From an uncultured virus (IMG/VR IMGVR_UViG_3300035210_000191) (Duplodnaviria; Heunggongvirae; Uroviricota; Caudoviricetes), in the IMG/VR virus record IMGVR_UViG_3300035210_000191: 64,000 bases of DNA; one strand, given 5' to 3'. This document shows positions 1,706-62,207 of this stretch, one piece after another. The notes beneath the pieces are model-generated. The model was not told the DNA's origin, made no database searches, and saw only the letters and a list, made by a program, of their open reading frames with translations. How positions within the stretch are numbered: position 1 is the first letter of the stretch; each line of letters begins with the position of its first letter. The translations under genes and the position numbers were made by a program.

Positions 1706-2260
1706 ATGGATAATAAACAACAAATAATTGACTACTTTTTTGATTCGCAAGATATTGAATTAACCGAATTTCACAAAAGAGAAGAATGGCCTGATTGCTT
1801 AATGTTTGTTGATACTCGTGAAAAAAAATCAGCAGTCGTTAATCACCAAATTATTCGATTTAGATTTGAAGACCATTTTAAATCTGAGGTTGTTTTAAGA
1901 GCAACTGTTTCTTATATTTATGAGAATGGTGTTAAAAGTGGCATGCAATTTAAAAACAAAACATTAGTTGAAAAAATGAAATTAGGCCAAAAATGCGTTT
2001 CTGTTTTAGACCAAATTAATGTTAAGCATTATTATCCTGCAATGTATTTTACTATTGAAATGAATATATTGGACAATATAATTTCGGTTACAAATTGCTA
2101 TCAAAGCATTAATATTTTAAGTGGCAATGGACCTAGTTATCGCCTTTTAGAAGACATGGTAATCAATATTATTAATCGCCACTTTAAAGATTGGGACTTT
2201 TCTATTGATGATATTCCACTTACTGATTTAATTGACATGTATTTAATGGCAAGAATTTAA
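1706..2260 (+). CDS. Hypothetical protein, paralog of 2271-2831, C-terminal MxxI motif
   Basis: Shares IIRF.F....V.L.A.[VI]S..Y...V....QF....L......LG.KC...LD.....HY.P with the next ORF. Ends YLMARI. Confidence 0.75.
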   Translation: MDNKQQIIDYFFDSQDIELTEFHKREEWPDCLMFVDTREKKSAVVNHQIIRFRFEDHFKSEVVLRATVSYIYENGVKSGMQFKNKTLVEKMKLGQKCVSVLDQINVKHYYPAMYFTIEMNILDNIISVTNCYQSINILSGNGPSYRLLEDMVINIINRHFKDWDFSIDDIPLTDLIDMYLMARI

Positions 2261-2270
2261 GGTATTTAAT

Positions 2271-2831
2271 ATGACAGATTATGAACGATTGATTAATCAT
2301 TTTTTTTACCACTTTAACATCACGATTACAGGTAAGTTCAAAGAACAGAAAAATATTTTGTCACCTCATTGTTATTCTGTTACTTATCGACTTATAAATG
2401 CTTCACAGTCAATGAGTAATGGTTTGATTATTCGGTTTTCTTTTGATGAAAATGATACCATTTTAAAAGCGAATATCAGTTGTAGTTATGGTGATAGTGT
2501 TGTAGATGTCTTACAATTTGATGGAGCTGTTTTAAAAGACGAAATAGTATTAGGTTTAAAATGTATGGACTTTCTTGATAGAGAGCAAATTAGACACTAT
2601 TGTCCACTTATAGAAATGAATGCTTTCATGGATAAAACCACTAGAAAAATAGCTTTTGAAAGGTTTAAGCATACACTGAACATTTATATGGATAGAACGT
2701 CAAGTGAGCGTCTTGATTTAATGATTCATGTAAGTAAATTACTTGATAAAGAATTAAACAATTTAGAAATTGAAACAAAAAACATTGATTTAAATGATAA
2801 GCTGGATCTATTAGCAATGGTTCGGATATAG
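2271..2831 (+). CDS. Hypothetical protein, paralog of 1706-2260, C-terminal MxxI motif
   Basis: AAGG SD; aligns by eye with the preceding ORF. Ends LLAMVRI. Confidence 0.75.
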   Translation: MTDYERLINHFFYHFNITITGKFKEQKNILSPHCYSVTYRLINASQSMSNGLIIRFSFDENDTILKANISCSYGDSVVDVLQFDGAVLKDEIVLGLKCMDFLDREQIRHYCPLIEMNAFMDKTTRKIAFERFKHTLNIYMDRTSSERLDLMIHVSKLLDKELNNLEIETKNIDLNDKLDLLAMVRI

Positions 2832-2992
2832 AAATTATTTTAAATTTGTAGTTTCACACACTTTCATAATACACAGCTTAACCATTGAAAACAAAGCGTT
2901 TCAGGCCGCTTTTTTCATTTGTTTTTTGACTAATTTGCTTTACTTTTTTTGTTGTATTTGTTATAATAGATCAATGAAAAGAGGGCTTAATA

Positions 2993-4721: not shown

Positions 4722-4730
4722 TGTGAAATA

Positions 4731-4779: not shown

Positions 4780-5415
4780 ATGGATTATTTTGAAAAACGT
4801 AAATTATTTAAACAGTCTTTCATTAACTTTCTTGAAGGGACTGAACTAACACCTAAACAAACTCATTTTAGTCCGCACTTTGTGCTTAGGGAAAATAACA
4901 AACTAGGCGATTCTGTTTCAACTGGAAATCTCGATAATGCAGAAGAATTAAAGGATTTCTTTTTACAGCATGTTAAACAATTTAAGCATACAGCTTTCAT
5001 TAAAAAAATGAAAAAAATTATTTTAAAGTATTCAAAACTGTTAAATTTGGATATAGATTTTTTTGATATGTCAGTTTCCACTGATATTGAACTGAATATT
5101 GATTATAAAAGCCTACTAGATATTGAAAGCATTTCATTTGTGTTGCGAGGCAAAGGCGGTAAAACGGGGTATACAACTTTTCATTTTTGTGCCTACCTAT
5201 CTGGTGTGGAAGCTTCTTATGAAATTGCTGAATTAGATGGTCGCACTTTTGAACATCAGTCCATAATTGTCATTTGTGTGAACCATAAAAAAATTGATGA
5301 TATTATTCTTCCTATGTTAAATTCTTATAAGGACATTATCTCTCAATTATTGGGATATGAAGTCACCCATGTTGATGAAGATATCATTACTGTCTTAGAT
5401 ATGATTAAAATATAA
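4780..5415 (+). CDS. Hypothetical protein with C-terminal MxxI motif
   Basis: GGAG SD; 211 aa; ends TVLDMIKI; followed by a UUCG terminator at about 5450-5471. Confidence 0.7.
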   Translation: MDYFEKRKLFKQSFINFLEGTELTPKQTHFSPHFVLRENNKLGDSVSTGNLDNAEELKDFFLQHVKQFKHTAFIKKMKKIILKYSKLLNLDIDFFDMSVSTDIELNIDYKSLLDIESISFVLRGKGGKTGYTTFHFCAYLSGVEASYEIAELDGRTFEHQSIIVICVNHKKIDDIILPMLNSYKDIISQLLGYEVTHVDEDIITVLDMIKI

Positions 5416-7289: not shown

Positions 7290-7300
7290 AAAAAGAGCCT

Positions 7301-13309: not shown

Positions 13310-13414
13310 GGTTTGAGTTACAGAAAAGGTCGCTTTCGGGCGACTTTTTTATTGCCTATGAAAAAGTATTATGGTATAATCCTACCATCTAAAATGATAG
13401 TGAAAGGTGCATTG

Positions 13415-14071
13415 ATGAAAGAAATCAGCAAGATTGACAAGGCTACACAAAAGAAAATCGGTGATTTTCTTATGACCAACTATGGCTATGAAAAAATCGG
13501 CTACACACAAGGCAAAGCGAAATCTTACTTCATGTGTGGTTCTGATTTGTTGGAAGTGTCTCGCCGTCCTTTGATTGGTGCTGGTAAAGACGTATTCCAC
13601 TATTCAATTTCATCCAATAGCCAGAGCTTGACAAAGAACTTCATTAAAAACCAGAAAGTTGTTGATTTTATCTTTAATGCCATTCGTGACATTAACGGTT
13701 TGAAGTATGATGTTGTGAGTAATGATAACCAAACTATTTCTCGTATCAAGGTCATTGATTTTGTTATTCATGCTTTTGAAGGGCGTCTAGAAGACTTCCA
13801 GCGTGAGTATAAGCCCAGTGTAGGCTTTTGGGTGTCCACCACAGGGAGTGAACGACTATCGTATGTTATCGTTCATGCTGATGGCCGTGTGAACTATGCT
13901 GGTGCTGAAATCACGGCTAAACAGTTTGGTGAATACTTGATTAATGATTATGCCGCTTACATTGCAAAGATTGATGAATTTTTTGAGCATGATGGTCAAC
14001 ACAAAACGTTTGATGAACGTGTTGATGACTTAAAGAATACAATGATGACCAAAGAAATGTTTGCTATTTGA
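13415..14071 (+). CDS. Hypothetical protein with C-terminal MxxI motif
   Basis: ATG 13415 after AAGGTG SD and TGGTATAAT; ends TKEMFAI. The longer ORF call overlaps the terminator at 13328-13350. Confidence 0.7.
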   Translation: MKEISKIDKATQKKIGDFLMTNYGYEKIGYTQGKAKSYFMCGSDLLEVSRRPLIGAGKDVFHYSISSNSQSLTKNFIKNQKVVDFIFNAIRDINGLKYDVVSNDNQTISRIKVIDFVIHAFEGRLEDFQREYKPSVGFWVSTTGSERLSYVIVHADGRVNYAGAEITAKQFGEYLINDYAAYIAKIDEFFEHDGQHKTFDERVDDLKNTMMTKEMFAI

Positions 14072-15662: not shown

Positions 15663-16283
15663 ATGTCATTATTCTTATTTGTTGTGTTTGCTTGCATTAC
15701 ACTTCCAATGCACTTGCTGTTGAATTATAAATTGTCGCCTGATTTTTCAAATGCCTATATGTTTAAAAGTCTTGCCATTACTGCTGCGTTGGCAATTGCT
15801 GCAATAGTTGAATACACGTATTTTACGAGTACAGTGTTTGCTTTGCTCTTTGCTTTTTCAATGGGGTATATTTTTCTTAAATTCTTGATGTTTGCAGCTA
15901 TCACATCATTTGTTATCTTTAATGAGCAAGTTGAGAGTGACAGCCTTCCATCCTTGAAGTTATTTTTAAAGAACCTTAAAGTGAGAAGCTTTTATTTATC
16001 GAAAGGTCAATCTAATATTTATTTTCTCAACAATGATGGTGTGAATATTTACTTTGATAAACACAGTTCTGATTTTGACACGCTTTCAAATGCCCATGTG
16101 ACTTATTTTGCTAACTCTCTTGTTGATAAAACCTGTAAAAAAATAGAGCTTAATAAATTTGTCATCCTTAATGTTAAGGAAAGGTTCATGTCTGTTTCGT
16201 CAGATGAACTAAAAACGCTCGATGTTCCTATTGAGAAAATAACCAAAGAACATTTTGATTTGCTGCAGATGATGAAAATTTAA
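15663..16283 (+). CDS. Membrane protein, paralog 1 of 3, C-terminal MxxI motif
   Basis: About 3 N-terminal TM helices; NIYF..N.GVNIYFD and SVSSDEL shared with next ORFs; ends LLQMMKI. Confidence 0.75.
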   Translation: MSLFLFVVFACITLPMHLLLNYKLSPDFSNAYMFKSLAITAALAIAAIVEYTYFTSTVFALLFAFSMGYIFLKFLMFAAITSFVIFNEQVESDSLPSLKLFLKNLKVRSFYLSKGQSNIYFLNNDGVNIYFDKHSSDFDTLSNAHVTYFANSLVDKTCKKIELNKFVILNVKERFMSVSSDELKTLDVPIEKITKEHFDLLQMMKI

Positions 16284-16303: not shown

Positions 16304-16921
16304 ATGTCACTTGAAACATTCCTGATTGTTCTCTTTATAGGTTTACCTGTTTCTTTGTTTTGGAATTATAAGTTTGCGTCTCAATTCACTAATGCTTACT
16401 TGTATAGAAAGTTAGCTGGACAATCTATTCTGGTTGTATTAGCCTTTGCTGAATATTTTTATTTTAACTCACTGGCGATGGGTATCGTTTTTACGTGTTT
16501 TATTGCTTGGGAGTTATTACAACTCATTATTGTGTTAAGTATTATTGGCTTTATTGCTTTTACAAAAAAACTTGATAAAAGAGAGTATGCAACGTTTGCC
16601 TTGTTTTTTACTCGTTTTAAAATGAGAACACTTTTTAAATCAGAAAATCCTAATATTTATTTCTTCAAGAATAATGGAGTGAATATTTACTTTGACGCCA
16701 ATAGTGATGACTTTAAGTCTTTGTCAGAAGATTACCTTAGTCGATTTAAAAACAACATCAAAGAAGAAAAATCAAAAAGTGTTGCATTTGAACATTTCTT
16801 GATATTGAATTGTGATGATAACTACCTTTCGGTGTCTTCTGATGATTTGCAGTTACTGAATGTGGATATATTCAACATAGATAGAAATCATTTTGATGTT
16901 TTGCGGATGTTGAAAATATAA
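16304..16921 (+). CDS. Membrane protein, paralog 2 of 3, C-terminal MxxI motif
   Basis: Same architecture as 15663-16283; ends VLRMLKI. Confidence 0.75.
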   Translation: MSLETFLIVLFIGLPVSLFWNYKFASQFTNAYLYRKLAGQSILVVLAFAEYFYFNSLAMGIVFTCFIAWELLQLIIVLSIIGFIAFTKKLDKREYATFALFFTRFKMRTLFKSENPNIYFFKNNGVNIYFDANSDDFKSLSEDYLSRFKNNIKEEKSKSVAFEHFLILNCDDNYLSVSSDDLQLLNVDIFNIDRNHFDVLRMLKI

Positions 16922-16994
16922 TATGATACTTTAACACTGGTTTATGTGGCTGATATTTGTTATAATAAGGCTACTTATCTCAGGGGGTATTTTG

Positions 16995-17618
16995 ATGACA
17001 TTTTCATTTATGGCAGCTATTGCAGTCATTGTTCAATTTCTAGTTGGTGTTTTGGAATACAAATATCCGAAGTCATTAACGCATGGACGAATGATCAAAA
17101 GGCTTATACCGCTGGCGTTTCTTTCTGTTTTGGCGTTTATGGAATATGTATTGACTGGGTACCATTATTTCACTTACTTCTTGGGTGCCTGTCTTGGCTT
17201 TATGTTTATTGCTACGCTGGGTGATGTGTGTAAATATTTTTATATGCTTAATGCTAAAAGAAAAACTGATTTCAATGAGAATACAACAGATGCACTATTC
17301 TACTTGAATTGGAAGATTAAAAATTTCTGTTCAACCGACCAAGTATCTAGAACGTTTTTCTTCAAACAAGATGGTCTTACTGTTTTTTTTGGAGAACCTG
17401 ATTCTTCATTTGAAGCAATGGATAAAACAAAATTGCAATTGTTTAAAGACAGTCTTACACAATCAACGATGGGTCACATTAAATTTGGTGGATTTTTAGT
17501 TATCAAAAATAAAGATGATTATATCTCATTGTCGTCTGATGAATTTAAAATGCTCAACGTGCCAATTACAAAAATTAATCAAGATATTTTTAAAGCGATT
17601 GAAATGCTGAAAATTTGA
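16995..17618 (+). CDS. Membrane protein, paralog 3 of 3, C-terminal MxxI motif
   Basis: ATG 16995 after GGGGG SD; ISLSSDEF; ends AIEMLKI. Confidence 0.7.
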   Translation: MTFSFMAAIAVIVQFLVGVLEYKYPKSLTHGRMIKRLIPLAFLSVLAFMEYVLTGYHYFTYFLGACLGFMFIATLGDVCKYFYMLNAKRKTDFNENTTDALFYLNWKIKNFCSTDQVSRTFFFKQDGLTVFFGEPDSSFEAMDKTKLQLFKDSLTQSTMGHIKFGGFLVIKNKDDYISLSSDEFKMLNVPITKINQDIFKAIEMLKI

Positions 17619-23910: not shown

Positions 23911-24006
23911 TCAACTACAGTTGTTATATTAAAATAGCCTTCGGGCTATTTTTTGTTGCTTCAATTTTTTAAATGTAGTATACTCTTCAAATTATTAGGA
24001 GCCACA

Positions 24007-32912: not shown

Positions 32913-33045
32913 TTTTTGCTCCTTTAAATGACCACAGAAAATTATAACATTAAGCAACACTATTTTCAAATATATTTTTCAATAGGGCTTTCATTTTCTG
33001 CTTTCTCTTGGTATTATATACTCAACATACTTAATGGAGGTTGTT

Positions 33046-41968: not shown

Positions 41969-43123
41969 TTATATTTTGACCATCTTATATAATTCTAAAT
42001 GATCCAAAGTTAATGGGGCATCATTTTTAATTGTTTCATTAACATGTTGTTTTATTATATTTAAGAAAGCATCATACAAGACAGCTAAATTTTCAGTGTC
42101 AATATAATCGTAATTGTCGATAACTATTTTACAAGTTATTGTTTTTTCATGACCACCAATATCAATTATTAAACAATTTTCAAAATTAAAACTATATATG
42201 GTTATTTTTTTTAAATTATTTAATTTTGTATGATTTACTGGTATATTACTAATATCTATACTTAGTCTAGGGGCTTTATTTGATAATTCACAATAAAATA
42301 TTATTAAATTAATTAACTGTGCCATTTCAGATGACTCTCTGAAATGTGATTTCATTATTTTATCATATAACATAAGAGCAATTTTTTTATTTTCCTTCGA
42401 GTTCAATGAAATATTTAATGAGTCAGTTTCTTTATTAGTGATAAAAAAATCTTCATTGATATTTTTATTTATGTATTTAACAAGATCTTCTGCATTAAAA
42501 TATTCAAAGTTCAGTTGAGAAAACTGTTCAGTTATAATATCAAAAATACTCTTATTTTTGAAGGTTATTACTTCTGGATGGTTTTCTTTGTAATGATCTA
42601 ACCCAACCTCTTTTAACATTGCTAATTTCAATTCATCTATCATTTTTCCTAAATTTATATTGATGTTATTGTTATTATGTTCATTTGAGGCAAGTATGTA
42701 ATTTCCTTTTTTACAACATCTGATGCGAATTTCAATATAATCGTTTGTTAATTTAAAGAACAACCCAATTTCAGGCCAGATCATTTCAATTTCATCAACA
42801 AATGAGATATTTATATTTCTAACAAAATTTATTTGATTAATTGTTATTTCTTGATCATATCCGTATAACATTAAATTACAAAATGTCTTAAACTCTTTTA
42901 ATTTAAGTTTTGACTGGGGGTTCAGGTCTAAGATATCTTCTATATAAGTGATATTGTCATGTTTTATCAACATTATTTCATCATATCGAGAAACTTTGTC
43001 ATAAAAATAAGCTTTATTTTTTTCATAGACTTGTGATATATTTATACAGATATTTTTTATATTTTTACATCTTATATAATTATCTATATTATCTGCTATT
43101 TTTTCTTCAATATCTTTAATCAT
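41969..43123 (-). CDS. Very AT-rich hypothetical protein, paralog of 43120-44250, C-terminal MxxI motif
   Basis: Shares IKH..I.Y..DIL...K.K..EFK.FC..LYG and TFKNKS with its neighbour; ends LYKMVKI. Confidence 0.75.
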   Translation of the reverse strand: MIKDIEEKIADNIDNYIRCKNIKNICINISQVYEKNKAYFYDKVSRYDEIMLIKHDNITYIEDILDLNPQSKLKLKEFKTFCNLMLYGYDQEITINQINFVRNINISFVDEIEMIWPEIGLFFKLTNDYIEIRIRCCKKGNYILASNEHNNNNININLGKMIDELKLAMLKEVGLDHYKENHPEVITFKNKSIFDIITEQFSQLNFEYFNAEDLVKYINKNINEDFFITNKETDSLNISLNSKENKKIALMLYDKIMKSHFRESSEMAQLINLIIFYCELSNKAPRLSIDISNIPVNHTKLNNLKKITIYSFNFENCLIIDIGGHEKTITCKIVIDNYDYIDTENLAVLYDAFLNIIKQHVNETIKNDAPLTLDHLELYKMVKI

Positions 43124-44250
43124 ATATTAATCATCTCATAAACTTTTAAGTGATTTAATGTAATAGTATTGTTACCATTCATAAGCGTTTTATTAATATC
43201 TTCACGAATACTTTCCAGTAAGTAAATATAAACATCGTTAAGAGTCTCTGATGTTTTTTCGTATTTCTCATCTTTCAATGGTGATTTATAAGTAAAAGTA
43301 TGTTTATCTTTACCAATAAACAATTCCAATAGTTTATCAAAACAGTAGACATAAAAAATGCCATCTAGTTTTTGTAATTTATTTACTTTACCTTCAACAT
43401 TAGAATAGTCAAAGTATATTGTAGGCGATTGATTTTTTATTTTAAAATAAAACATCATTAAACTCATTAATTGTCTCATTAAGTGTCGTTCGTTGTTTGA
43501 TTTTATTAATTCATCGAAGATGGTTAGAACTTTTTTTTCATGATCATCTTTAAAAGTAAATATGCCAACTTTAACAAAATCACTTGTTAATTTCTTGTTA
43601 ACAATTTCAACCAATTCTTCTTGGCTTTTATAATTGTATTTTTTAGTTGAAAACTTTTCATTGGCAACTTCTATCGTACTTTTGTTCTTGAATGTTTTAA
43701 ACTCTTCTGTATATTCCGCATTTAATGCATAGCCTGCTTTTGATATGAGAATGCCTTTCATTTCATCAAGCATATCTTGAAGATAATTATTTATATTATT
43801 GCAATTATAGTTTCTTGTTTTCCATCTAAGGTTCCCATTATTCACAGATAACATAACATTGTCTTCATAGCATTCAATCCATATACCGGATTCATTCCAT
43901 TGGCATTTAACAGATATGATTTCTTTTGTTGTTGGCGAATATTCAAGCAATATCATATGGGTGTTGGTTTTGTTATTATTTCCGTAGAGCAATTGTGTAC
44001 AGAAAGATTTAAATTCTTCAAACTTTACTTTAAGTGCTTTATTAGAAAATAAAATATCATCTAAGTAATTAATGTCAGTGTGCTTAATTACTAAATAGTC
44101 AACATGATTTACGTCCATATAAAATCTCATGAAAAAATTATCGACATTTTCTGGTATCTTTTGATAGCTGTTATATCTATTTTCAATTTTTTTAGAATCA
44201 ATATAACTATCAATAGAGTTAAGTATTTTATTGGTGATTTTAGTAATCAT
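43120..44250 (-). CDS. Very AT-rich hypothetical protein, paralog of 41969-43123, C-terminal MxxI motif
   Basis: ATGA stop/start overlap with its paralog; ends VYEMINI. Confidence 0.75.
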   Translation of the reverse strand: MITKITNKILNSIDSYIDSKKIENRYNSYQKIPENVDNFFMRFYMDVNHVDYLVIKHTDINYLDDILFSNKALKVKFEEFKSFCTQLLYGNNNKTNTHMILLEYSPTTKEIISVKCQWNESGIWIECYEDNVMLSVNNGNLRWKTRNYNCNNINNYLQDMLDEMKGILISKAGYALNAEYTEEFKTFKNKSTIEVANEKFSTKKYNYKSQEELVEIVNKKLTSDFVKVGIFTFKDDHEKKVLTIFDELIKSNNERHLMRQLMSLMMFYFKIKNQSPTIYFDYSNVEGKVNKLQKLDGIFYVYCFDKLLELFIGKDKHTFTYKSPLKDEKYEKTSETLNDVYIYLLESIREDINKTLMNGNNTITLNHLKVYEMINI

Positions 44251-46447: not shown

Positions 46448-46643
46448 GGTCAACCTCTTCGTTTAATTTGCATTATTGTATCATCTTTTTCACCATTTTG
46501 GAATATCTTTTTTCACTTTTACTGTTTTTATAAGAAAATAAAACAAAATGTATTGATAGATTGTTGAAATATATTTATTAAACGCTATTTTTTAAATTTT
46601 TAAAACTGCTAAGATGGTAGTACAAACAATTAAAGATAATCAT

Positions 46644-48770: not shown

Positions 48771-48953
48771 ATTAAAAAACTTTAAAAAGGCTTAACTTCT
48801 GTTAAGTTTTTTTTATTTTAATAGATATAATTATTTATATTTTTAAAATCCGACAAACGTTCATTAAATAGTCTTATTTATTATTGGTTGTCTATATATT
48901 ATTTTCAAAAATATGCTAATATTTTAATATTAACTAACTCATTTGAGACAACT

Positions 48954-49480: not shown

Positions 49481-50431
49481 GTGATTATGCTTACGATTGA
49501 AGAAATTAAAAATTACTTAAATATGCCAGAACTCCCTATTGCCCATACTAATAGTGAGCGGAATTTTTATGTTAAAAAAATATATGATGATTATTATTGT
49601 TCAAATCACGATCAATCTATCATTATTCGAGCCTTTGACGATTTTGAACCCATTAGTGTTTCAACGTCTCGCTATTTTACTGTATACCTTAATGATGTTG
49701 TCATTTTGACGTATGCGGGCGATCACTCTTATAATTCAGATGTCTTCAAGATTTTTGATGGATTACCCTTTATGACATTAATACCAGAACATTTTGATTT
49801 TTTCGTTAATGAAGTCAATACAAAAGGTCAAGATTGCATTGTATATTTTGATCGAATGTCTGAAAAATCTATTGACTATGAAGGTGATCAAAATATCTCC
49901 ATTCTTTATGTATCGTTGAAGGAAAAAAAATATAAGGATAAATCTTTTTACAAAATTGTGAAGGGTGAACTGTTGCACTCGTATGGCTTTTACACCAATC
50001 AATATTTTGGCAATAATGAATATAAGAAATATTTTAATAAAATAGCTTATCTGAAACAATATTATCAGTTATACACACTTATGATTTATCAATCTATTGA
50101 TGCTCAGAACGTTCGCTTTCTACTCAATAATTATGATTTTGAAATCATACTGAACAATTCAGCAAATAATACTCAATTGTTTACTGAACCTAACCATTCG
50201 GTAGCTTATCAATATGAAAAAAATAAACGTCACTCTGCTATTTCTGTTGACACCACAGGTGCTACTGATTGTATTGAAGCGTTGATGGATCAATTGATTA
50301 ATATTTTATTCAAAGAATACCCATGTGCTGAATTCTCCCAGTTTTTGTCAGAAGCAGGGCGTTATCATTCATCGTTGACGGATCACGAATTTGATGACTA
50401 TATCCAATTATTCAGGATGAGCACTATCTAA
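49481..50431 (+). CDS. Hypothetical protein with C-terminal MxxI motif
   Basis: GAGG SD, TGCTATAAT; ends QLFRMSTI. Confidence 0.7.
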   Translation: MIMLTIEEIKNYLNMPELPIAHTNSERNFYVKKIYDDYYCSNHDQSIIIRAFDDFEPISVSTSRYFTVYLNDVVILTYAGDHSYNSDVFKIFDGLPFMTLIPEHFDFFVNEVNTKGQDCIVYFDRMSEKSIDYEGDQNISILYVSLKEKKYKDKSFYKIVKGELLHSYGFYTNQYFGNNEYKKYFNKIAYLKQYYQLYTLMIYQSIDAQNVRFLLNNYDFEIILNNSANNTQLFTEPNHSVAYQYEKNKRHSAISVDTTGATDCIEALMDQLINILFKEYPCAEFSQFLSEAGRYHSSLTDHEFDDYIQLFRMSTI

Positions 50432-50747: not shown

Positions 50748-51143
50748 TTGAGCGACTACGAAGAATTTGATAAGAGAGCAGTCTTAAATAATATTATGAT
50801 TGTTGACCAATTGTTTAAAGCTAATGGAGCCATCCATAAAATTTGCTTTGATATGCAACGTGATTATGAGACTAATCGTGAAGATGGCTATAATGGTTTT
50901 AGTTTTAGCCTAGATCCTGATATTTATAATTTTCATCTTTATGCAAATGATTTCACATTAAGTGTTGATCATAATAGTGTTTTTTGTTTTTATGGAGGAT
51001 TTGGTGTTCAATTTAAGCCATCACCGTCATCAACAATAGAGCAATTTAAACAGTTACTGCTTATTGTGATTAATATGAATTCAGAACAAAAATTTGATAA
51101 TATTGAGCAGTTCATTGACCTGCATAACATGATATACATCTAA
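50748..51143 (+). CDS. Short member (C-terminal half only) of the 50.7-56.9 kb paralog array
   Basis: NI.IVDQLF...G matches the second half of downstream paralogs; TTG start after AAGGA; ends LHNMIYI. Confidence 0.6.
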   Translation: MSDYEEFDKRAVLNNIMIVDQLFKANGAIHKICFDMQRDYETNREDGYNGFSFSLDPDIYNFHLYANDFTLSVDHNSVFCFYGGFGVQFKPSPSSTIEQFKQLLLIVINMNSEQKFDNIEQFIDLHNMIYI

Positions 51144-51160: not shown

Positions 51161-51931
51161 ATGCTTTTAACAAATGCTTCACGTTTACTGGAAGTTTATT
51201 TTCACATTAGCGATTTGGCTAAATTTGAGATTGATACGACATTCGCCAGTGAATTACTCTCACCCAGCGAAAAACGTTTTTTAATGGACGCTGTTCGTGC
51301 ATTAGCAAACGACATATTATCAGTTTCAGAAGACTTTAAAACCAGTATTAATTTTTATATCCGTCAATCAGGTTGCTTGATTGAGATGGATTCTTCTTAT
51401 CCGTTTTTAATCCAATCATCTTTTAATTTTGAACTGTATGAACCTTTAATTAAACATAAGTCGCTTGATCAGTATGTGAACGATTTAATTTATCAAAATG
51501 ATAGATATCGAACCTATGGAAGTTATTTGACTCTTGTTGATTTTAGATCTTTCTTTGAAAATATTAGATTTATTGATAACTTATTTGAATTTGATGGCAA
51601 ATTTTATTCGTTTTATCAAGACATTGATTTTACATTAGGGGCACGAGAAGTTAAATTTGATTCTTTTAATTCTTTTGTACATTGTGGTGAAAACCCTCTG
51701 TTAAAAATTCAATTTGGGGATCTTCTGGTCACCATCTCACCTGATGAATTTTCTTTTGCTATTATGGGTGGTTCCGCTATTTTGACCATATCTAAGCAAA
51801 GCAGACGGAGTTATCAACAGAAAAAAGATAACTTAGCAACACTTATTATAGATATGTATAATATGGAGTTAATGACAGAAGCTGACACCATGAAAAATTT
51901 ATTACTATTGATTAGAATGAAGGCTATTTAG
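51161..51931 (+). CDS. Paralog-array protein (DD.L...SYPF domain), C-terminal MxxI motif
   Basis: LANDIL...DFKT...IEMDSSYPF; NIRFIDNLFEFDGK; ends LIRMKAI. Confidence 0.75.
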   Translation: MLLTNASRLLEVYFHISDLAKFEIDTTFASELLSPSEKRFLMDAVRALANDILSVSEDFKTSINFYIRQSGCLIEMDSSYPFLIQSSFNFELYEPLIKHKSLDQYVNDLIYQNDRYRTYGSYLTLVDFRSFFENIRFIDNLFEFDGKFYSFYQDIDFTLGAREVKFDSFNSFVHCGENPLLKIQFGDLLVTISPDEFSFAIMGGSAILTISKQSRRSYQQKKDNLATLIIDMYNMELMTEADTMKNLLLLIRMKAI

Positions 51932-52244: not shown

Positions 52245-53087
52245 ATGTTTGATGAAAATCTGCCATATCAGTTAAAAACTGGTAGGCAATTAATAAAGTT
52301 GTCTGATTTAAAAAATGCTGAACTCATTGGTGTTCAGGATGAACACAATTTAAAAATTTCTCGTTTTTTAACGATTCTTGCTGATGATATTTTGTGTATG
52401 CGTGATGATGTGAAAACTTATGCTTTTATAGAAATTGTTGATGATGTATTTTCTATATGTCTAGACTATTCTTATCCTTTTTTGGAGTTTTTAAACAGCA
52501 CTCACCCTATTAAGATAAATAAATCATTAAATAGAGTTTATTTTCGTTTAAATCTAAATCTATCAATAGATTTAATCACTCCCACATTGTTGGCGATATT
52601 CCTTGATGAATTAAAAGCTGATGGTTGGTATAAGTTTAATGATGATGATGAGCGAGAGTCGGAAACTGGTTTGATGGAACAGTTTATTCACATCAATGCA
52701 TTGGATACTTTTTATGTATTTGATATCATCGATCAGTCATTGGGCTATGATGGAAAACTGTCCAAACTGGTTAAAAATAATATTTACTATGTAATGCCAT
52801 TCTCAGAAGAAGATGAGTTCTCAATGTTTGAATTTAGAAACTTTAATTCAAGTAATATTGAGTTGACACTCACTAACCATGATTTCTACATTAAAGTTAT
52901 CAATAACACAATTAGATTTGAATATTTATATGATTCGATGGAGTTTAATTTAAATAAAAAACATCCAGTTGCCTTTAATATTAAAAAATTTACTAAATTC
53001 TTTTTAAGTTTTTACAATATTCAACACGACACGGACCATGATGATTTACCACGCTGGATTAAACTTCAGGAAATGATAGCCATATAA
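52245..53087 (+). CDS. Paralog-array protein, C-terminal MxxI motif
   Basis: ILADDIL...SYPF; IIDQSLGYDGKL; ends LQEMIAI. Confidence 0.75.
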   Translation: MFDENLPYQLKTGRQLIKLSDLKNAELIGVQDEHNLKISRFLTILADDILCMRDDVKTYAFIEIVDDVFSICLDYSYPFLEFLNSTHPIKINKSLNRVYFRLNLNLSIDLITPTLLAIFLDELKADGWYKFNDDDERESETGLMEQFIHINALDTFYVFDIIDQSLGYDGKLSKLVKNNIYYVMPFSEEDEFSMFEFRNFNSSNIELTLTNHDFYIKVINNTIRFEYLYDSMEFNLNKKHPVAFNIKKFTKFFLSFYNIQHDTDHDDLPRWIKLQEMIAI

Positions 53088-53189: not shown

Positions 53190-54029
53190 ATGGCTAAATC
53201 AAAAAAAGATGACGAACTTATTATTCTTTCCAATCATGATAACCATACTGTTATGTTAACCGACTTGCGTCGAGTAAACATTGAAGGAATCAGCAAGCAA
53301 AAAAATAATAGAATGTTAGCCTACTTTGACCTTCTTGTTGACGATCTTTTAATTTACAATGGCGATTTTGAGTTGGATGTCGAAATTTCGATGAGTGCTG
53401 ATGACATGTTTATGAGTGTCATGTTAGAGAAATCATATCCTTATTATGATGATTGTATTTTTCTTTGTTTTGATCTAAAAGAAAAAGCAAGTATTCAGAA
53501 TTTAGCAAGAGCACTTTCTAATCTTGACACTGATGATCGGGAACATTGGGATGACAAAGATGATATTGTGAAATACATTGACTGTAGTTTTGGTTATGAG
53601 CATGAATTGATGTTGAGTGATTATCCACCTATGTTTATTGAGTATGGTTGTGGGCTGATGCGTAATGTTCGCCTCGTTGATAAAGCACTCTATTTTGACA
53701 ATCAACTGGTTAAAACTTTTCGTAATAATAACATAACAACAAGTAATGATATACGCATTGATTCATCATCCTTTACATTCACGATGCAGGGAACAAAAGA
53801 ACCTGACATCTTTGTGAATTCCGCTTACCTTGATATTAGAATTGAAAATGATGGTGTGAAGTTTACGTTTGATAAGGATAATACATTTACTTTTACCACA
53901 ACGACTAATTTTGAACGTGATTTTAATATGTTACAGATGTTTATTAAAATGTTTATTGAAAAAAAGAAAGATCACGATATTCATGATTTGAAAAGTGAAC
54001 TTTTGTTGATTGAGATGGAAAATATTTGA
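53190..54029 (+). CDS. Paralog-array protein, C-terminal MxxI motif
   Basis: LLVDDLL...KSYPY; LVDKALYFDNQL; ends LIEMENI. Confidence 0.75.
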   Translation: MAKSKKDDELIILSNHDNHTVMLTDLRRVNIEGISKQKNNRMLAYFDLLVDDLLIYNGDFELDVEISMSADDMFMSVMLEKSYPYYDDCIFLCFDLKEKASIQNLARALSNLDTDDREHWDDKDDIVKYIDCSFGYEHELMLSDYPPMFIEYGCGLMRNVRLVDKALYFDNQLVKTFRNNNITTSNDIRIDSSSFTFTMQGTKEPDIFVNSAYLDIRIENDGVKFTFDKDNTFTFTTTTNFERDFNMLQMFIKMFIEKKKDHDIHDLKSELLLIEMENI

Positions 54030-54030
54030 T

Positions 54031-55086
54031 ATGAATAAATATAAATATTTACTTAATGCCGATAATTTTTACATGTGTTCCATGACAGACTTAAAAACAA
54101 CCACATTTAAAAAATTAAAAGATGAACATAAACGAACATTGTTAAATCGGTATTTAAGCCTGTTAGTTGATGATGCTTTATCTAATAATAAACCGGACTT
54201 CAAAATAGAAATTCGGATGGATATCAATGATGATATTGTCGATATAAGCATTGGAACCGCTTATCCGTTTATAGGACAATTTGATTTGTCTCAACCATTT
54301 AACAAGTCTTGTGTACTGGATTATTTGAATAATACTAATTTAGTACTGAGTGACAATGGGACAGAAGGTACCTTAAATGAATTTAGGAAAACGCAAGTAT
54401 TGTTTACTACTGCATCATTTAATAAAAAGCTATCTGAATATTTATCATTTATTGCAGATGATGTTTTCCCTTTTGTTGAAGATAATAAAATTTATTATAG
54501 TATTAAAGCTCATGAAACAAGTTTTGACTTGCTGTTGGGCCATGCTTATCCTTTTTTTGAGACAAATGTTCTTCGTTTTAAAATTGATTTGGAGCAAGAT
54601 TTCAATAGTCTTTTGATAGTTGAACAATTGAATGTTTATGCTCAAGAGCAATTAAAAGATCCAAAAACTAACTTTTTTGTTTTAATTAAAGATGGTTTAC
54701 AATTTTTAGAAACTATTAAGATTTTAGAAAATGTTTTAGGGTTTGGCAATCAATTAACAAGTCTTTACTATAATAATTCTATTTTAAAACCTATTAATGA
54801 AATTTCATTTCTTTCTATTGAGCATCAAAAACGTCAATTATCTTTAGAAATGGTGTCTAAGGGTGAACTTGCTCTAGATATTCATATTAGCCAATCTAAT
54901 CTTGCTTTTCTTTTTGGTAAAAGAGATGGCACATCTGAGAATTTTACATGGCTACGTACTGAATGTATGGATCATGATACATTAATGGTTCATCAATTTT
55001 TTATTATTTATCTTGAAAAATGGCTTGGGCATAAGATTACAGATTTAGCAAGGGAAATAAAATTACTTGAAATGGAGGCTATTTAA
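54031..55086 (+). CDS. Paralog-array protein with duplicated N-terminal domain, C-terminal MxxI motif
   Basis: Two YLS...DD...AYPF repeats; ends LLEMEAI. Confidence 0.75.
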   Translation: MNKYKYLLNADNFYMCSMTDLKTTTFKKLKDEHKRTLLNRYLSLLVDDALSNNKPDFKIEIRMDINDDIVDISIGTAYPFIGQFDLSQPFNKSCVLDYLNNTNLVLSDNGTEGTLNEFRKTQVLFTTASFNKKLSEYLSFIADDVFPFVEDNKIYYSIKAHETSFDLLLGHAYPFFETNVLRFKIDLEQDFNSLLIVEQLNVYAQEQLKDPKTNFFVLIKDGLQFLETIKILENVLGFGNQLTSLYYNNSILKPINEISFLSIEHQKRQLSLEMVSKGELALDIHISQSNLAFLFGKRDGTSENFTWLRTECMDHDTLMVHQFFIIYLEKWLGHKITDLAREIKLLEMEAI

Positions 55087-56114
55087 TGCCAGATAAGTAT
55101 ATTTTAAGTGGAGCTAAGGTTAATGGACTAATCTCAGAATTAAAAAATTTGAAATTTTGTGATGACATTAACAATTACAACGAAGCAATTCGAAGATATA
55201 TAAATCTTCTGGTGGATTCAGCTCTTTTACAGGTAAAAGATGTCAAAATTCAGTATTGTATTACGATTAATTTTAATATAATGACTATCCATTTATGTGA
55301 TAAATTCCCATTCATGGCAACTTTCGATCTTGACGCTCCATTCAATGAAAATAATGTATTAGAACATCTTAATAACGAAAATCTCGTAATGAATAATGCC
55401 CGATATTTATGTGATATAGATGAATTAAGATATCAAAAAGTTTTATTTGTTGGCACTGAGGACAATAAGAAAATATCAGCATATTTAAGTATGATTGTTG
55501 ATGACATATTGGTTTTTGGTGAACACTTTGAAACTGAGTTTAGTCTTAGCGTTAATAATAATATGTTTACTATTGAAATGACAAAATCATATCCCTTTGT
55601 TGGTTCTTATATTGAACTTAAGTTCGATTTAAACGAGCCAGTTGATATTAATAACATATCAAGTCAATTGGATGAACTTAGAAAACATCATATTTATCTT
55701 GAACGTGTTAATTATTATGTAAGCTTAGATGTTGGCAAAAAGTTTTTAAACCGTATTGATATTATTGAAAAAGCTCTGGGTTATGATGGCAGATTAAAGG
55801 ATGTTTATCTTAATCGTTCAATTTACAAGACGAAAGAAAAATTTTCTTTCTTTGATTTTGAAGTCAAAAATAGGAGTTTCTTAGAACTAACACTTCACTC
55901 ATCAGAAACAGACATGACTATTGAAATTGAGTCTAATTATATTTTCATTGGATTTAGTGATTATGATAGATTCTCTTGGACATTTACAGATGATGAGGCA
56001 TCTGATGTTTCTATTATTCGAAAAATGTTTATAATTTACCTTGAAAAGAAATTGGATAAAAAAATAGTAGACTTGAAAAGAGAAATACAACTAATTGAAA
56101 TGGAGCATATTTAA
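55086..56114 (+). CDS. Paralog-array protein with duplicated N-terminal domain, C-terminal MxxI motif
   Basis: Two repeats (LLVDSAL...KFPF; MIVDDIL...SYPF); TAATG coupling; ends LIEMEHI. Confidence 0.75.
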   Translation: MPDKYILSGAKVNGLISELKNLKFCDDINNYNEAIRRYINLLVDSALLQVKDVKIQYCITINFNIMTIHLCDKFPFMATFDLDAPFNENNVLEHLNNENLVMNNARYLCDIDELRYQKVLFVGTEDNKKISAYLSMIVDDILVFGEHFETEFSLSVNNNMFTIEMTKSYPFVGSYIELKFDLNEPVDINNISSQLDELRKHHIYLERVNYYVSLDVGKKFLNRIDIIEKALGYDGRLKDVYLNRSIYKTKEKFSFFDFEVKNRSFLELTLHSSETDMTIEIESNYIFIGFSDYDRFSWTFTDDEASDVSIIRKMFIIYLEKKLDKKIVDLKREIQLIEMEHI

Positions 56115-56875
56115 TGGTAGAAAATTCTAATAAAAAAATAGAAATTGAAAGTGCTCGAAGTTATGAGTTAAACCTTAGTGAGTTAAAATATATCTCCATT
56201 ATTAAAGGTAATCATACTTCTTTTGACCATTTGCAAATGATTCAATATATTAATATGATTGTTGATGATGTTATGGTTTATGGGGAGGATTTCAAAGTTA
56301 TATTTAATGTATCTATTACAGAGCATATACTTGATTTTGAATTTAAATCTCTTTATCCCTTCATTAACGGTCTAGTCATGTTTAGTATAGATCTTCGGGA
56401 AGATGTTAATTTTCAACGTATTGCTAGAACACTGGATCATCTGATTGATATTAATATCAGGCATGGTCAGCGGATTAATTATACAGATCTAAGTCATCAT
56501 ACGATGTTTAGTAACATTAATATCGTTGATCAAGCCTTATTTTATGAGGGTAAATTAAAAGAAGTGTTTTCTAAGCGTTCACTTTTTGAAGAAAGTGTTA
56601 AATTTTCCTTCTTTGACTTAAATTTTTTGAATAATGGGGCGACGAGAATTCAACTTCTTTCTCTCAGTGCTGGTGTATCTATTTGGATTGATATTAATAA
56701 GGTTTCATTTAGCTTTGATAGCAAAGATTCATCTATTTGGTGTTTTACTGATGATGCTTCATTTGATATGTTATCAATACGTCAATTATTTGTACTCTAC
56801 CTTGGCAAAAAATTGAATAAACCCATTATAGACGTTCGAAGAGAAATCCAATTGATTGAAATGCAAACTATTTAG
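56114..56875 (+). CDS. Paralog-array protein, C-terminal MxxI motif
   Basis: MIVDDVM...LYPF; IVDQALFYEGKL; ends LIEMQTI; bidirectional terminator at 56884-56907. Confidence 0.75.
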   Translation: MVENSNKKIEIESARSYELNLSELKYISIIKGNHTSFDHLQMIQYINMIVDDVMVYGEDFKVIFNVSITEHILDFEFKSLYPFINGLVMFSIDLREDVNFQRIARTLDHLIDINIRHGQRINYTDLSHHTMFSNINIVDQALFYEGKLKEVFSKRSLFEESVKFSFFDLNFLNNGATRIQLLSLSAGVSIWIDINKVSFSFDSKDSSIWCFTDDASFDMLSIRQLFVLYLGKKLNKPIIDVRREIQLIEMQTI

Positions 56876-58950: not shown

Positions 58951-61347
58951 TCACTTTAGCAGTGAGTTGATTTCAATTTTTTCGTAACTGTTTTCTGTAT
59001 TCCTACTGGTAAATACATAAGCACTATCAGTCGTAATCGCTACATCTGTATCGTCGTTCAATATCGGGGTTTCACCGACTTTAACACTTTCAAACAAATC
59101 AAACACTGACGGCAATGTGTTCAAATACTCAACAAATGCTGGCATTCTCTCAGACAGCAAAGTGCCGTTGGTTTCGGCGGAATGCACATGACCATACAAG
59201 TTAGCATCCATGTAAACTACTTTCCTTTCAACCAAGTCGAGGTAAGCCACATACTTGGTCAAATTCTTACCTTTTACTTCAAAGACAAATTGAGCACGGC
59301 TTGGTTCGTAAAGATTACCTTCCTCAGCGTTCTCACCCATTTGCAATGTGCCCACTAAATCATCAGCCGCATCGAAAGGTTGGCTGTTGAATGACAAGAT
59401 ATTCCAAACAGCATAACGCACACCAGAATTAACCAGTTTGTCGATATACAAGTCAATCATCTGGCAACCACGACCTTGCGTATCTTGACTGATAACAGGG
59501 TCACCCGAGAAGACAGCACCAGCGTCTTGGGTTAAATAGGTATCTTGACCTGTATAAGAATAAGCAGCATTCCAGCAGCAAGCACCTTTTGAACCCCAAT
59601 TTTCATCAAAGAAGTTCCAGCTATTATCAAACCAGATGTTACCCGAATCTTTCATCTGCCAGTAACTTGCACTTCGAATGAAATTGATATTTTCAGGCAT
59701 ATCAAATACGGTACCACGACCATAATTAGCCGCAAGGTTTTGATCATTGGTTTGAAGCTTAATCTTACTTGTAGCTTTATCCAGCATAACGCCTTTTGGA
59801 AAGAGAACTTCCATACGCTTAGCAATCTCTGTATTGACAGCAGTTACGATAGTTTCTACAGCTTCTGCAGACAACATGACTTTGCCATTTTTAATAGGCT
59901 TATATATTTTTTTCTCAGGTGCTACATAACGTTGATACATAGGCTTTGGTGAAGGAATAAACATAGGCTCAGGAGCAGGCTCAAGATTACCTTTGAACTT
60001 TTCAATCAACATCGCTAAGGCGTCACTGGATGGGATTCCAGACTTAACTTCTGTAATAGCCGGTTGATCAACCTCAGTTTTTACGACTTCGACAATAACT
60101 GGTTCCATAACATCAACTGCTTTTACTTTTTGTTTCTTTTCTGCTTTCACAGGTGCTACGAATTCTTTTTCCACTGATGTGTCTTTTTCAACACGTTGAA
60201 TAAAGTGGGCATTTGTCCAGTTACCTTTTGGGGCATAGATAAAGTGCTGACGATCATTAATAGTGGTTACATACTTTTTCAACTTCAACAGTTGCAACGT
60301 ATCAAATTGATCAATCTTAGCCACAATCGCATCCACAGCTTTCTCACCAAACACTTCGTAAAGCTTGTGGAAACGACGCATCAAGTCACCTTGACGGTTT
60401 GAAAGCATATCAAACACTGTGTCATCTTTGGTCAACACTTTGTTTTCAACCTTGGCGTTGAAGCTTTTAAGCTCACCATTGCACAAAGTGCCATAGACAG
60501 CCGTTACTTTCGGGAAGTTGTAATCTTTTGGGTGAAGCTGGAACATAAATTTCTTCCAGTCTTGTTGACGCATAGCCACATCATCAGCCAAGTTATTAGA
60601 CTTATTTAACAAAGACAACAAAGCCTTACGTTCTTTACGAGAGAATTTTTTGAATTTTACTTTGGTGCGAAGTGAAACATCCGCATCGGACATTGCAGCA
60701 GCCAAACGCATGACATCGGTAGCGTCTTTAATAGTGAAATTAAGGCCGCTTTCAATCGCTTGCTTGATAATTACGATACCGTTCTCTTTGAAGCCGAAAT
60801 CGCTCAAATTGATGGTTTCTTGATTGTTGTTAGTCACCAACTGGATTGCGAAATCCTTTTGTTGGTCATTCCAACGGTTTTTAGATTGAATAAGAGTTTC
60901 CTTGATGTTATTCAAGGTGTCTTCTTTTTCAAGGTGCAGCACTTTCAAGTTCTTTTGATCTTTGAGAGCTGGACGCTCTACTTTGTCATCAGCAAAATAG
61001 TCTGGACTAAACCCAACATACATCAAAATTTGGCAGAACCAGTATTCAGCTTCAGATTTATCAAGCACTTCTTTTGGGAAGTTTTTGTAAACAACAGCCG
61101 AATCCATATCACGATCAGAAGCAGTCACCTCTTTGAAAGCAGGTTCCACAGACAACCAGAAGGATTCTAGATCTTGTGCTGAATAGGTTTGAAGTTGTTC
61201 GATGACTTCTCTGGATGGAGTCCAGCCATAGTGAACCATGTTGGCAAATACAGTAGACAGTTCTTCTTTGCTCGCAGGTGTGCTGGCAACAACGCGAGTT
61301 GCTTGCACAAAATTGTTTGCCAAAAGAATTGTGTTTGTATTTATCAT
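58951..61347 (-). CDS. Large helical-repeat + TerD-like domain protein (MXAN_6230/SCO0854-like family, no RING)
   Basis: YKNFPKEV...EAE, TDVMRLAAAMSDADVSL...KFKKFSRKERK.LL.LL, LHP.DY, R.GDL.R, YGRGT, FSGD...GCQMIDL...GVRY (TerD-like), YEPS; AGGAG SD; promoter TTGACT(61414)-17-TATTAT. Family assigned from memory. Confidence 0.65.
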   Translation of the reverse strand: MINTNTILLANNFVQATRVVASTPASKEELSTVFANMVHYGWTPSREVIEQLQTYSAQDLESFWLSVEPAFKEVTASDRDMDSAVVYKNFPKEVLDKSEAEYWFCQILMYVGFSPDYFADDKVERPALKDQKNLKVLHLEKEDTLNNIKETLIQSKNRWNDQQKDFAIQLVTNNNQETINLSDFGFKENGIVIIKQAIESGLNFTIKDATDVMRLAAAMSDADVSLRTKVKFKKFSRKERKALLSLLNKSNNLADDVAMRQQDWKKFMFQLHPKDYNFPKVTAVYGTLCNGELKSFNAKVENKVLTKDDTVFDMLSNRQGDLMRRFHKLYEVFGEKAVDAIVAKIDQFDTLQLLKLKKYVTTINDRQHFIYAPKGNWTNAHFIQRVEKDTSVEKEFVAPVKAEKKQKVKAVDVMEPVIVEVVKTEVDQPAITEVKSGIPSSDALAMLIEKFKGNLEPAPEPMFIPSPKPMYQRYVAPEKKIYKPIKNGKVMLSAEAVETIVTAVNTEIAKRMEVLFPKGVMLDKATSKIKLQTNDQNLAANYGRGTVFDMPENINFIRSASYWQMKDSGNIWFDNSWNFFDENWGSKGACCWNAAYSYTGQDTYLTQDAGAVFSGDPVISQDTQGRGCQMIDLYIDKLVNSGVRYAVWNILSFNSQPFDAADDLVGTLQMGENAEEGNLYEPSRAQFVFEVKGKNLTKYVAYLDLVERKVVYMDANLYGHVHSAETNGTLLSERMPAFVEYLNTLPSVFDLFESVKVGETPILNDDTDVAITTDSAYVFTSRNTENSYEKIEINSLLK

Positions 61348-61502
61348 GTTCAATATTTCTCCTAATTGATTTAATGTAACATCAAATAATACGCTCATAA
61401 AGCACTTAAGTCAAGCACCTTTATGCTTTTTTTTTTGATTTTTTGATAGCATATCTTCTTATATTATGATATCATTAGCCATCAATAATGTGGAGAGTAT
61501 TT

Positions 61503-62207
61503 ATGGCGTTTTTAAATTTTACAACCAAAGAAGAATTCATGGCTATTGTTTATTCTGCTAATGATACCGTTCGTTTAACTAATTCGAAAGACAGTCCTTC
61601 AGAAATCAGCCTTATTGAGTCGTTTGGTTTTGAAAGAATAGAGCGTGGCAGTATTGAACACGCTATTTCTTTGCATGGTATTACCTATCGTTTTATTGAT
61701 GAGACGACAGACACTACCATTTATATTTCATTCAGTAACCCTGTGAAGTTGTATACGGGCATCTCGTATATGCTAAATAAACATTTTTTCTCAACGTCCA
61801 AGAAAGTGTATCACAGAGAAAATAGCCAGCCAGCTTTTATTAGTTATCATGGTAGTGGTAAACCACATATTCAAAACTATGCAATCTATGGTAAAACACC
61901 ACCAATCACTATTATTGATGACAAAGAATACTCTTATCTGACCACTGTTACATCGACCAGAACGACTAAAGATTATCTATTCGAAAAACAAAAATGGCAC
62001 GCTACTCAATATCGGTTTAATAATAAATCAATGTCTCCATTACAGGTTACCTATTATAACGATAAATTTCCGACGAGCTTTATTGAATTCCATGCTTTAA
62101 AACGACTTTATCCTGATTTAGCTCGACTGGTTGGGTATGACCGCATTAATTTGAACAAAAGTCTGACACCCGAAGAAATAACGCTGCTTGAAATGATGAT
62201 GTTTTAA
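61503..62207 (+). CDS. Hypothetical protein with C-terminal MxxF motif
   Basis: GGAG SD; YHRENSQPAFI resembles phage HR.DGPA-type repeats; ends TLLEMMMF. Confidence 0.7.
   Translation: MAFLNFTTKEEFMAIVYSANDTVRLTNSKDSPSEISLIESFGFERIERGSIEHAISLHGITYRFIDETTDTTIYISFSNPVKLYTGISYMLNKHFFSTSKKVYHRENSQPAFISYHGSGKPHIQNYAIYGKTPPITIIDDKEYSYLTTVTSTRTTKDYLFEKQKWHATQYRFNNKSMSPLQVTYYNDKFPTSFIEFHALKRLYPDLARLVGYDRINLNKSLTPEEITLLEMMMF

Follow-up and report, generated by a model that had tools for sequence, protein, structure and literature searches.

In a 64,000-nucleotide stretch of DNA from an uncultured virus (IMG/VR record IMGVR_UViG_3300035210_000191; hereafter, the window), 22 predicted proteins end in a common C-terminal tail. 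The consensus is [D/N](-11)-x-hydrophobic(-9)-x-L(-7)-hydrophobic(-6)-[E/D](-5)-M(-4)-x-x-I(-1), counted back from the stop codon, and the tail spans about 11-15 residues. The tail is real and is a feature of the protein. With a confidence slightly short of even, we propose that it serves for docking and that a single cytoplasmic partner recognizes it along with its free carboxylate.

We called open reading frames (ORFs) of at least 50 amino acids greedily and without overlap, which gives 79 in the window. M-x-x-[I/F]-stop ends 20 of them, and two more, at 32151(-) and 38998(+), have Ala at -4. The 22 carriers thus make up 28% of the window genes (22/79). A further match to the search pattern, 8018-8434(-), ends in ...NAAKF and is not counted as a carrier. 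Within the window proteins, M-x-x-[IF] occurs internally at 65 of 18,376 positions, from which 0.28 termini are expected (binomial P 2e-31). When paralogues found by BLAST and hidden Markov models (HMMs) are collapsed, the Met form ends 10 of 62 families (P 3e-14). In a control, Xanthomonas phage XacN1 with ORFs called in the same way, 1 of 591 ends in M-x-x-[I/F]. The initial annotation of the window had listed about 22 such ends. All 22 are present with correct stop coordinates and strands, the two Ala variants (YFAYLI at 32151 and FQAVAI at 39690) are confirmed as Ala(-4) tails, and the counts show an excess over chance. The codons for M-x-x-I, the stop codon (TAA, TAG or TGA), and the downstream DNA all vary from gene to gene, indicating that the constraint acts on the protein and that no DNA motif is involved.

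Met(-4) and Ile(-1) are each found in 20 of the 22 tails, and the last residue is aromatic in two. Position -7 is mostly Leu (L15 V3 M1 T1 A1 I1). In a C-terminus-anchored test, in which each family has weight 1 and positions outside the selection pattern are scored, the non-random positions are -7 (L, p 0.0016), -11 (D/N/E, 0.003), -9 (I/L/F, 0.017), and -6 (0.026), and no position beyond -15 rises above background. The initial annotation's L/I at -7 and -9 stands for L(-7), in 15 of 22 tails, and stands for -9, in 20 of 22, provided that I, L, F, and M are all counted at the latter position. Its "hydrophobic helix" is predicted to be a helix, but polar residues recur at -2, -5, -8, and -11. 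Acidic residues are common at -5, -8, and -11; the claim that one usually precedes Met does not hold, E or D being found at -5 in just 11 of 22 tails.

A 12-residue matrix, trained on the same 22 tails that it scores, gives them 10.3-24.6 bits; no other terminus scores above -2.0. Among 18,060 internal windows, the highest score is 12.2 bits, for an N-terminal signal-like stretch, and the next is 8.6. The register to the stop codon is exact in 22/22 carriers. Therefore, with no comparable internal match and this exact register, the element is strictly terminal. A purely structural helix should tolerate C-terminal extensions, and the fixed register argues for recognition. In addition, buried core positions in proteins so diverged normally exchange L, I, V, M, and F, unlike the Met and Ile of the tail.

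Relatives of the carriers retain the tail. Searches of 5.8 billion sequences return 5 relatives for a family D member, 8 for a family B member, and 12 for the carrier at 25339, of which 11 are full-length (58-96% identity) and all end in DMCFI. A family C member has 6 matches among 1.84 billion cluster representatives, 2 of them the window's own proteins. Among relatives with an intact C-terminus, M(-4) is found in 27/27, with M-x-x-I in 26 and M-x-x-V in one (P0018, merely 27% identical to the carrier at 41969); two further matches, fragments without the C-terminal end, are left out of this count. In particular, P0004 and P0005, 56-58% identical to the carrier at 54010, both end in ...REIQLIEME[TS]I. 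No relative of family D is found in the contigs of 185,579 species genomes, and the family D alignment has no match in the whole XacN1 genome. No viral contig is found with 55086 or with 25339, and no metagenome contig with family B. In these searches, the carrier families are confined to one lineage.

The metagenome locus L025:1-20552 is collinear with the window at 15.2-36.7 kb, with protein identities of 53-95%. Its five orthologues of carriers average 70% identity over the whole protein and 90% in the last 12 residues, and their tails differ by 16 synonymous versus 6 non-synonymous codon changes. For the 24 orthologues of non-carriers, identity is 80% over the whole protein and falls to 68% in the last 12 residues, where the changes are 49 synonymous versus 92 non-synonymous. 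The contrast in synonymous and non-synonymous changes is significant (Fisher P 0.001), whereas whole-protein identity does not differ significantly between carriers and non-carriers (P 0.17). Within the carrier families, the last 12-residue segment of the alignment lies above the family mean in every case; in family D it ranks 3/420, and the last 7 residues hold 3 of the 6 invariant columns. By these comparisons, the tail is selectively maintained, under stronger constraint than the protein bodies.

BLASTP together with family HMMs sorts the carriers into four families (A-D) and eight singletons, which makes 12 groups. When the last 110-130 residues are compared with hhalign, the groups align just at the very end, in register, over 10-27 columns (best E 9e-4). 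With the last 16 residues masked, nothing is left over 66 pairs of shallow profiles (best E 0.03) or over 21 pairs of profiles of 2-13 sequences (best E 0.0095). At the level of sequence profiles, this lack of signal does not exclude distant homology among the groups. The initial annotation had called the carrier families unrelated; that the 12 groups have no detectable similarity outside the tail stands, but unrelatedness is unproven, all carriers being orphans and many of them tandem paralogues. Its further statements, that carriers lie on both strands, include soluble and membrane proteins, and exclude the recognizable enzymes, are all correct. The minus strand encodes three of the carriers, the N-terminal part of family B is predicted to form three transmembrane helices, and none of the 26 ORFs with a Pfam or PHROG match carries a tail. 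The hypergeometric probability of zero overlap between these 26 ORFs and the 22 carriers is 2.4e-5.

Two of the 12 groups, B and D, were folded with AlphaFold2. The model of the family D protein 56114-56875 (11-row alignment; predicted local distance difference test score (pLDDT) 74.7) has two alpha/beta modules; in the second, a six-stranded sheet precedes a helix (residues 215-234) that a loop of six residues joins to the tail helix (241-252). The model of the family B protein 15663-16283 (10 rows; pLDDT 58.7) has three long N-terminal hydrophobic helices, followed by a hairpin (119-132), a helix (143-155), a second hairpin (167-178), a helix (180-186), and finally, at 195-205, the tail helix; model confidence is highest in the last 40 residues. 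Both models thus end in beta-hairpin, helix, tail helix. Foldseek gives no match of the D model to PDB or BFVD at E<=0.001. VIA gives middling Z scores only (5-7), over residues 124-238, to alpha-beta-alpha folds (frataxin-like, type III chaperone-like, and MotA C-terminal domain-like), and in its top ten rows the alignment ends at 229-243, which takes in no more than the beginning of the tail helix. No fold is assigned to the D model. For the family A protein 1706-2260, the ESM Atlas model is itself poor (pLDDT 0.34) and gives no usable match. Secondary structure from propensities and hydrophobic moments disagreed with the AlphaFold strings and was discarded.

The exact stop register, the near-invariant Met and Ile, the lack of internal copies, and a tail held under tighter constraint than its body together point to recognition by a common partner. 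We infer an external reader for the tail, as opposed to a helix that does nothing but pack on its own domain. In the proposed mechanism, the tail would form an 11-12-residue helix with a T/D/N cap at its start, L(-7), a hydrophobic residue at -6, commonly E or D at -5, M(-4), and a terminal Ile. One cytoplasmic partner, encoded by the element or by the host, would most likely bind this helix plus the free alpha-carboxylate, and this hub would tether or receive fast-diversifying, lineage-specific accessory proteins via the tail. The partner is placed in the cytoplasm because there are soluble carriers and because a basic loop follows the last membrane helix of family B. Of the shared recognition signal put forward by the initial annotation, the protein-level, strictly terminal nature, the occurrence in 12 dissimilar groups, and the retention in 27/27 relatives stand, but the window holds no gene for a reader. 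The large cargo or effector repertoire that it supposed stays conjectural.

As reader, a T4-type sliding clamp is the most concrete candidate, and an AAA+ machine the next. The C-terminus of RB69 gp43, ...KKASLFDMFDF, is described as a PIP (PCNA-interacting protein)-type peptide crystallized on the gp45 clamp; a hydrophobic pocket of gp45 holds it, and two basic residues meet its acidic groups (PMC3012046). Like the proposed docking tail, this peptide, bound to gp45 in PDB 1b8h, is short, hydrophobic, acidic, and terminal, and plugs the pocket of a hub. The match extends position by position: L(-7)F(-6)D(-5)M(-4)F(-3)D(-2)F(-1) in RB69 corresponds to L, hydrophobic, E/D, M, x, x, I/F in the carriers. 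With a 7-residue matrix, the RB69 tail scores 8.6 bits, compared with a maximum of 3.3 over 591 XacN1 termini and a minimum of 7.4 over the carriers. The gp43 homologue of XacN1 ends in ...SLLFDSLVEY, with the same -7/-4/-1 hydrophobic spacing as the carriers. The PIP-box consensus is given as Q-x-x-[L/I/M]-x-x-aromatic-aromatic (PMC3012046). With M(-4) placed at its hydrophobic position, the carriers do not follow it: -7 is never Q and the aromatic end is found in 2/22; the RB69 tail likewise lacks the PIP-box Q. T4-type clamp clients are replication or transcription factors, whereas the 22 carriers here are orphans that include membrane proteins. No clamp gene is present among the 79 window ORFs. 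A predicted complex of residues 212-253 of the carrier at 56114 with the gp45 trimer of RB69, which belongs to a different phage and serves as a surrogate clamp, scores 0.06 against a mark of 0.32 in a run without controls and speaks neither for nor against a clamp.

Several points weigh against the docking tail and its clamp version. The search for a reader found none. The RB69 comparison was picked after the fact, and the likeness fades in longer matrices, to 3.0 bits with 9 residues and 0.6 with 12. The ends of T4 gp43 (...SLDFLFG) and gp55 (...SLDFLYEAND) are in another register, and the gp55 motif is not terminal. A membrane-protein family is odd as a clamp client. The tail windows of families A, B, and C rank 26/180, 26/220, and 58/431, which is in the top 12-14% and not the best. 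Many carriers are tandem paralogues (two in A, three in B, two in C, and seven in D). None of the 22 has a match to Pfam (E<=0.01) or PHROG (E<=1e-5), and Pfam at E<=1 gives only sub-threshold noise. Finally, the tail follows a short loop, of 6 residues in the D model and roughly 8 in the B model, and its helix ranks among the better-scoring regions of both (pLDDT about 75-84); in these models, the short loop and confident helix would fit a tail packed on its own domain.

The last three points also favour simple inheritance, the alternative that survives best and that we regard as possible though on the unlikely side. Here, one lineage-specific orphan was duplicated repeatedly, and the tail is the best-conserved last helix of a small shared C-terminal module (beta-hairpin, helix, terminal helix) that packs on its own domain or self-associates, with no common external reader. 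The carriers may descend from one orphan ancestor because none of them has a known domain, unlike the enzymes that bear portable tags; 26 of the 57 other window ORFs do have one. Also in favour is the confinement of the families to one lineage: among 5.8 billion or 1.8 billion proteins, each has 5-12 relatives. Orphan paralogue expansions of jumbo phages, such as the roughly 35-copy Zn-ribbon expansion described for phage G (PMC7824862), are likewise tandem, fast-diverging, and phage-restricted; unlike in those expansions, the sole common element of the carriers is an 11-15-residue terminal tail in exact stop register. Inheritance has to face 12 groups without profile similarity outside the last ~16 residues, bodies of 131-384 amino acids, and one membrane-bound family. 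A single fold for all carriers, named by the initial annotation as what would overturn its proposal, gains from the common ending of the two models, but their upstream topologies differ, with six strands and a helix in D and hairpin, helix, hairpin, helix in B. Moreover, core packing alone does not predict a near-invariant Met and Ile and an exact common stop. Docking and inheritance are not exclusive: one ancestor that duplicated and diverged with an interaction helix held fixed would give the same picture.

A degron, by which the tail would deliver carriers to a host AAA+ protease (ClpXP, ClpAP, FtsH, or Lon) or to an AAA+ machine of the element and so limit their lifetime in infection, is rather improbable. 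C-terminal signals for ClpX are the LAA-COOH of ssrA and the RRKKAI-COOH of MuA; FtsH takes proteins with a non-polar C-terminal tail. Like the ssrA and MuA tags and the ClpX-binding peptide of SspB, the tail has a non-polar end, would depend on a free carboxylate, and would be read by one machine on many proteins. It is strictly terminal and register-dependent, soluble and membrane carriers are both reachable from the cytoplasm, and sigma70-like extended -10 promoters before several carriers suggest early expression. However, neither ClpX motif is matched: an A-A end occurs in 0/22 tails, and -4 is Met rather than a basic residue, the carrier at 51161 (...IRMKAI) alone resembling the MuA end. 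Acidic residues are common in the tail, which is predicted to be helical and is confidently modelled rather than disordered. It differs from ssrA also in sequence and in being encoded by the gene rather than added by transfer-messenger RNA.

An export, packaging, or ejection signal, addressing carriers to a secretion system, a capsid, or an ejection apparatus, is less probable still. Many-to-one C-terminal signals do exist, in type IV and type I secretion and in encapsulin cargo loading, and the numerous orphan carriers resemble effector sets. Nevertheless, the 79 window ORFs include no secretion, portal, capsid, or shell family, no type IV (Dot/Icm-like) or type I secretion-system gene is found in the 64 kb, the motif is far more uniform than secretion signals, and the replicon looks phage-like rather than cellular. 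The packaging or ejection tag suggested by the initial annotation is hard to square with the three predicted transmembrane helices of family B; capsid packaging is unlikely because integral membrane proteins cannot be capsid cargo. The peptides for microcompartment encapsulation and encapsulin cargo loading are also terminal and amphipathic, of about 10-20 residues, and are found on unrelated carriers that share one shell or hub. Those peptides are attached through long flexible linkers to recognizable enzymes, and shell genes lie nearby; in the window, 0/22 carriers are annotated, the loops are of about 6-8 residues, and no shell or encapsulin gene is among the 79 ORFs. Nothing was found in favour of the weakest alternative, in which the pattern arises by chance, from wrongly called ORF ends, or from a signal in the DNA (terminator, promoter, or overlapping start) that forces these codons; its probability is negligible in view of the binomial test, the use of synonymous codons, of all three stop codons, and of unrelated downstream sequence, and the excess of synonymous changes in orthologous tails.

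The window has a G+C content of 29-39% and contains no tRNA gene and no phage structural gene. Two pairs of a MoxR-type AAA+ ATPase and a DUF2201 metallopeptidase/vWA protein are present (376-1644 and 2993-4303; 9758-11092 and 11819-13309; all +). Such pairs are described as typical of T4-related "group 2.2" jumbo phages (PMC7824862), and the vWA protein shares 30-35% identity with proteins from jumbo phages of 350-470 kb. An 815-residue protein, 58951-61398(-), shares 45% identity with ORF396 of Xanthomonas phage XacN1 (385 kb); a search of viral contigs with it found one contig, of 4.8 kb. The MoxR/vWA pairs, the XacN1-like gene, and the jumbo-phage-like vWA protein indicate that the window content is phage-like. 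Relatives of three carrier families lie on contigs of 1,843,594, 1,858,324, and 1,917,244 bp, and L025 sits in a Joint Genome Institute metagenome contig of 1,859,102 bp with 32.5% G+C. The replicon may be a phage-like element of exceptional size or, alternatively, the window may be an island in a bacterium that has a small genome and is not represented in the collections; which of the two applies bears on the plausible readers. Sequence of the window is matched in DNA runs labelled as peat, freshwater, groundwater, and food metagenomes; no RNA run is listed.

Table 1 Carriers of the C-terminal tail in the window, with their ends as protein sequence
Carrier	Length (amino acids)	Coordinates	Strand	C-terminal end	Remarks
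Family A	184	1706..2260	+	TDLIDMYLMARI	26% identical to paralogue 2271
Family A	186	2271..2831	+	NDKLDLLAMVRI	
Singleton	211	4780..5415	+	EDIITVLDMIKI	Matrix 21.9 bits
Singleton		13313..14071	+	KNTMMTKEMFAI	True start probably an internal ATG
Family B	206	15663..16283	+	KEHFDLLQMMKI	Three predicted N-terminal transmembrane helices
Family B	205	16304..16921	+	RNHFDVLRMLKI	L025 orthologue 63% identical, 11/12 tail residues kept
Family B	224	16944..17618	+	QDIFKAIEMLKI	
Singleton	237	23953..24666	+	DDNIKILTMLVF	L025 orthologue 68% identical
Singleton	184	25339..25893	+	ELNKDLIDMCFI	
Singleton, Ala(-4) variant	272	32151..32969	-	QNHLDLYFAYLI	Matrix 20.4; L025 orthologue retains Ala
Singleton, Ala(-4) variant	230	38998..39690	+	DEMKFLFQAVAI	
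Family C	384	41969..43123	-	LDHLELYKMVKI	Tail kept in relatives P0015, P0017, P0018
Family C	376	43120..44250	-	LNHLKVYEMINI	
Singleton	316	49481..50431	+	DDYIQLFRMSTI	
Family D, short member	131	50748..51143	+	EQFIDLHNMIYI	C-terminal domain only; D HMM E 3.4e-6
Family D	256	51161..51931	+	KNLLLLIRMKAI	
Family D	280	52245..53087	+	PRWIKLQEMIAI	
Family D	279	53190..54029	+	KSELLLIEMENI	
Family D		54010..55086	+	AREIKLLEMEAI	Called TTG start probably wrong; ATG after preceding stop at ~54031
Family D	342	55086..56114	+	KREIQLIEMEHI	
Family D	253	56114..56875	+	RREIQLIEMQTI	AlphaFold-modelled
Singleton	239	61488..62207	+	PEEITLLEMMMF	

The called TTG start at 13313 is probably wrong because a terminator hairpin lies inside the first codons (13313-13360). 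Nearly all transcription units in the window end in a strong hairpin and a T-run. Extended -10 promoter-like boxes (TGCTAAAAT, TGCTATAAT, AGTATAAT, and TGTTATAAT) lie 20-50 bases 5' of several carriers, namely 15663, 25339, 32151(-), 43120(-), 49481, 50748, and 53190. These boxes suggest transcription by a sigma70-type polymerase.

The first MoxR-type ATPase has a C-terminal BRCT domain, an unusual fusion. Carriers adjoin both MoxR/vWA pairs, with terminators between. The MoxR/vWA proteins and the BRCT-bearing ATPase were considered as readers; their adjacency to carriers carries little weight because intrinsic terminators separate these genes from the neighbouring carriers. A full-length DnaK, 40007-41926(+), stands alone, without dnaJ or grpE, and has carrier genes on either side. 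Among 185,579 species genomes, the best 80 of its 564 relatives are 63-74% identical and all gammaproteobacterial (Pseudomonas-like), with none above 74% among these 80. DnaK was set aside as a reader, acidic residues at -5, -8, and -11 being disfavoured in DnaK-binding motifs.

Four paralogues with a DEDDh_C domain (DNA polymerase III epsilon-like C-terminal), at 19797-20846, 20912-21889, 30051-31061, and 31136-32140 (all +), are without the tail. A second paralogue family (46614-47585, 47784-48770, and 48888-49358; all +) has a different shared end, Y-[AG]-[LV]-C-R-V-x-x-stop, and at least one of its members has a signal-peptide-like N-terminus. A soluble PAS-PAS methyl-accepting chemotaxis protein, 5949-7289(+), lies amid the phage-like genes (Pfam MCPsignal 6e-34; phrog_8572). 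Other recognizable genes encode NADAR, DUF4326, NUDIX, ADP-ribosylglycohydrolase, CYTH, and PNK-phosphatase proteins.

That the element is phage-like, of ~1.85-1.9 Mb, a size well beyond that of any phage described, and addresses a large share of its orphans, perhaps hundreds, to a single hub by one C-terminal helix seems to us unlikely. Such an arrangement, with a T4-type sliding clamp or an AAA+ machine as the hub, would be an undescribed viral protein-addressing system; the titles and abstracts returned by a literature search hold no description of this tail or of a phage genome above 1 Mb. The contigs of 1.84-1.92 Mb raise the question of what type of replicon bears phage-like genes at such a size. 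Should the tail prove to serve for docking, knowing its reader would reveal the functional context of 28% of the window genes, all of which are at present unannotatable, and the tail would provide a portable 12-16-residue handle for tethering proteins to the hub. More generally, giant phages may organize large accessory proteomes by short terminal motifs.

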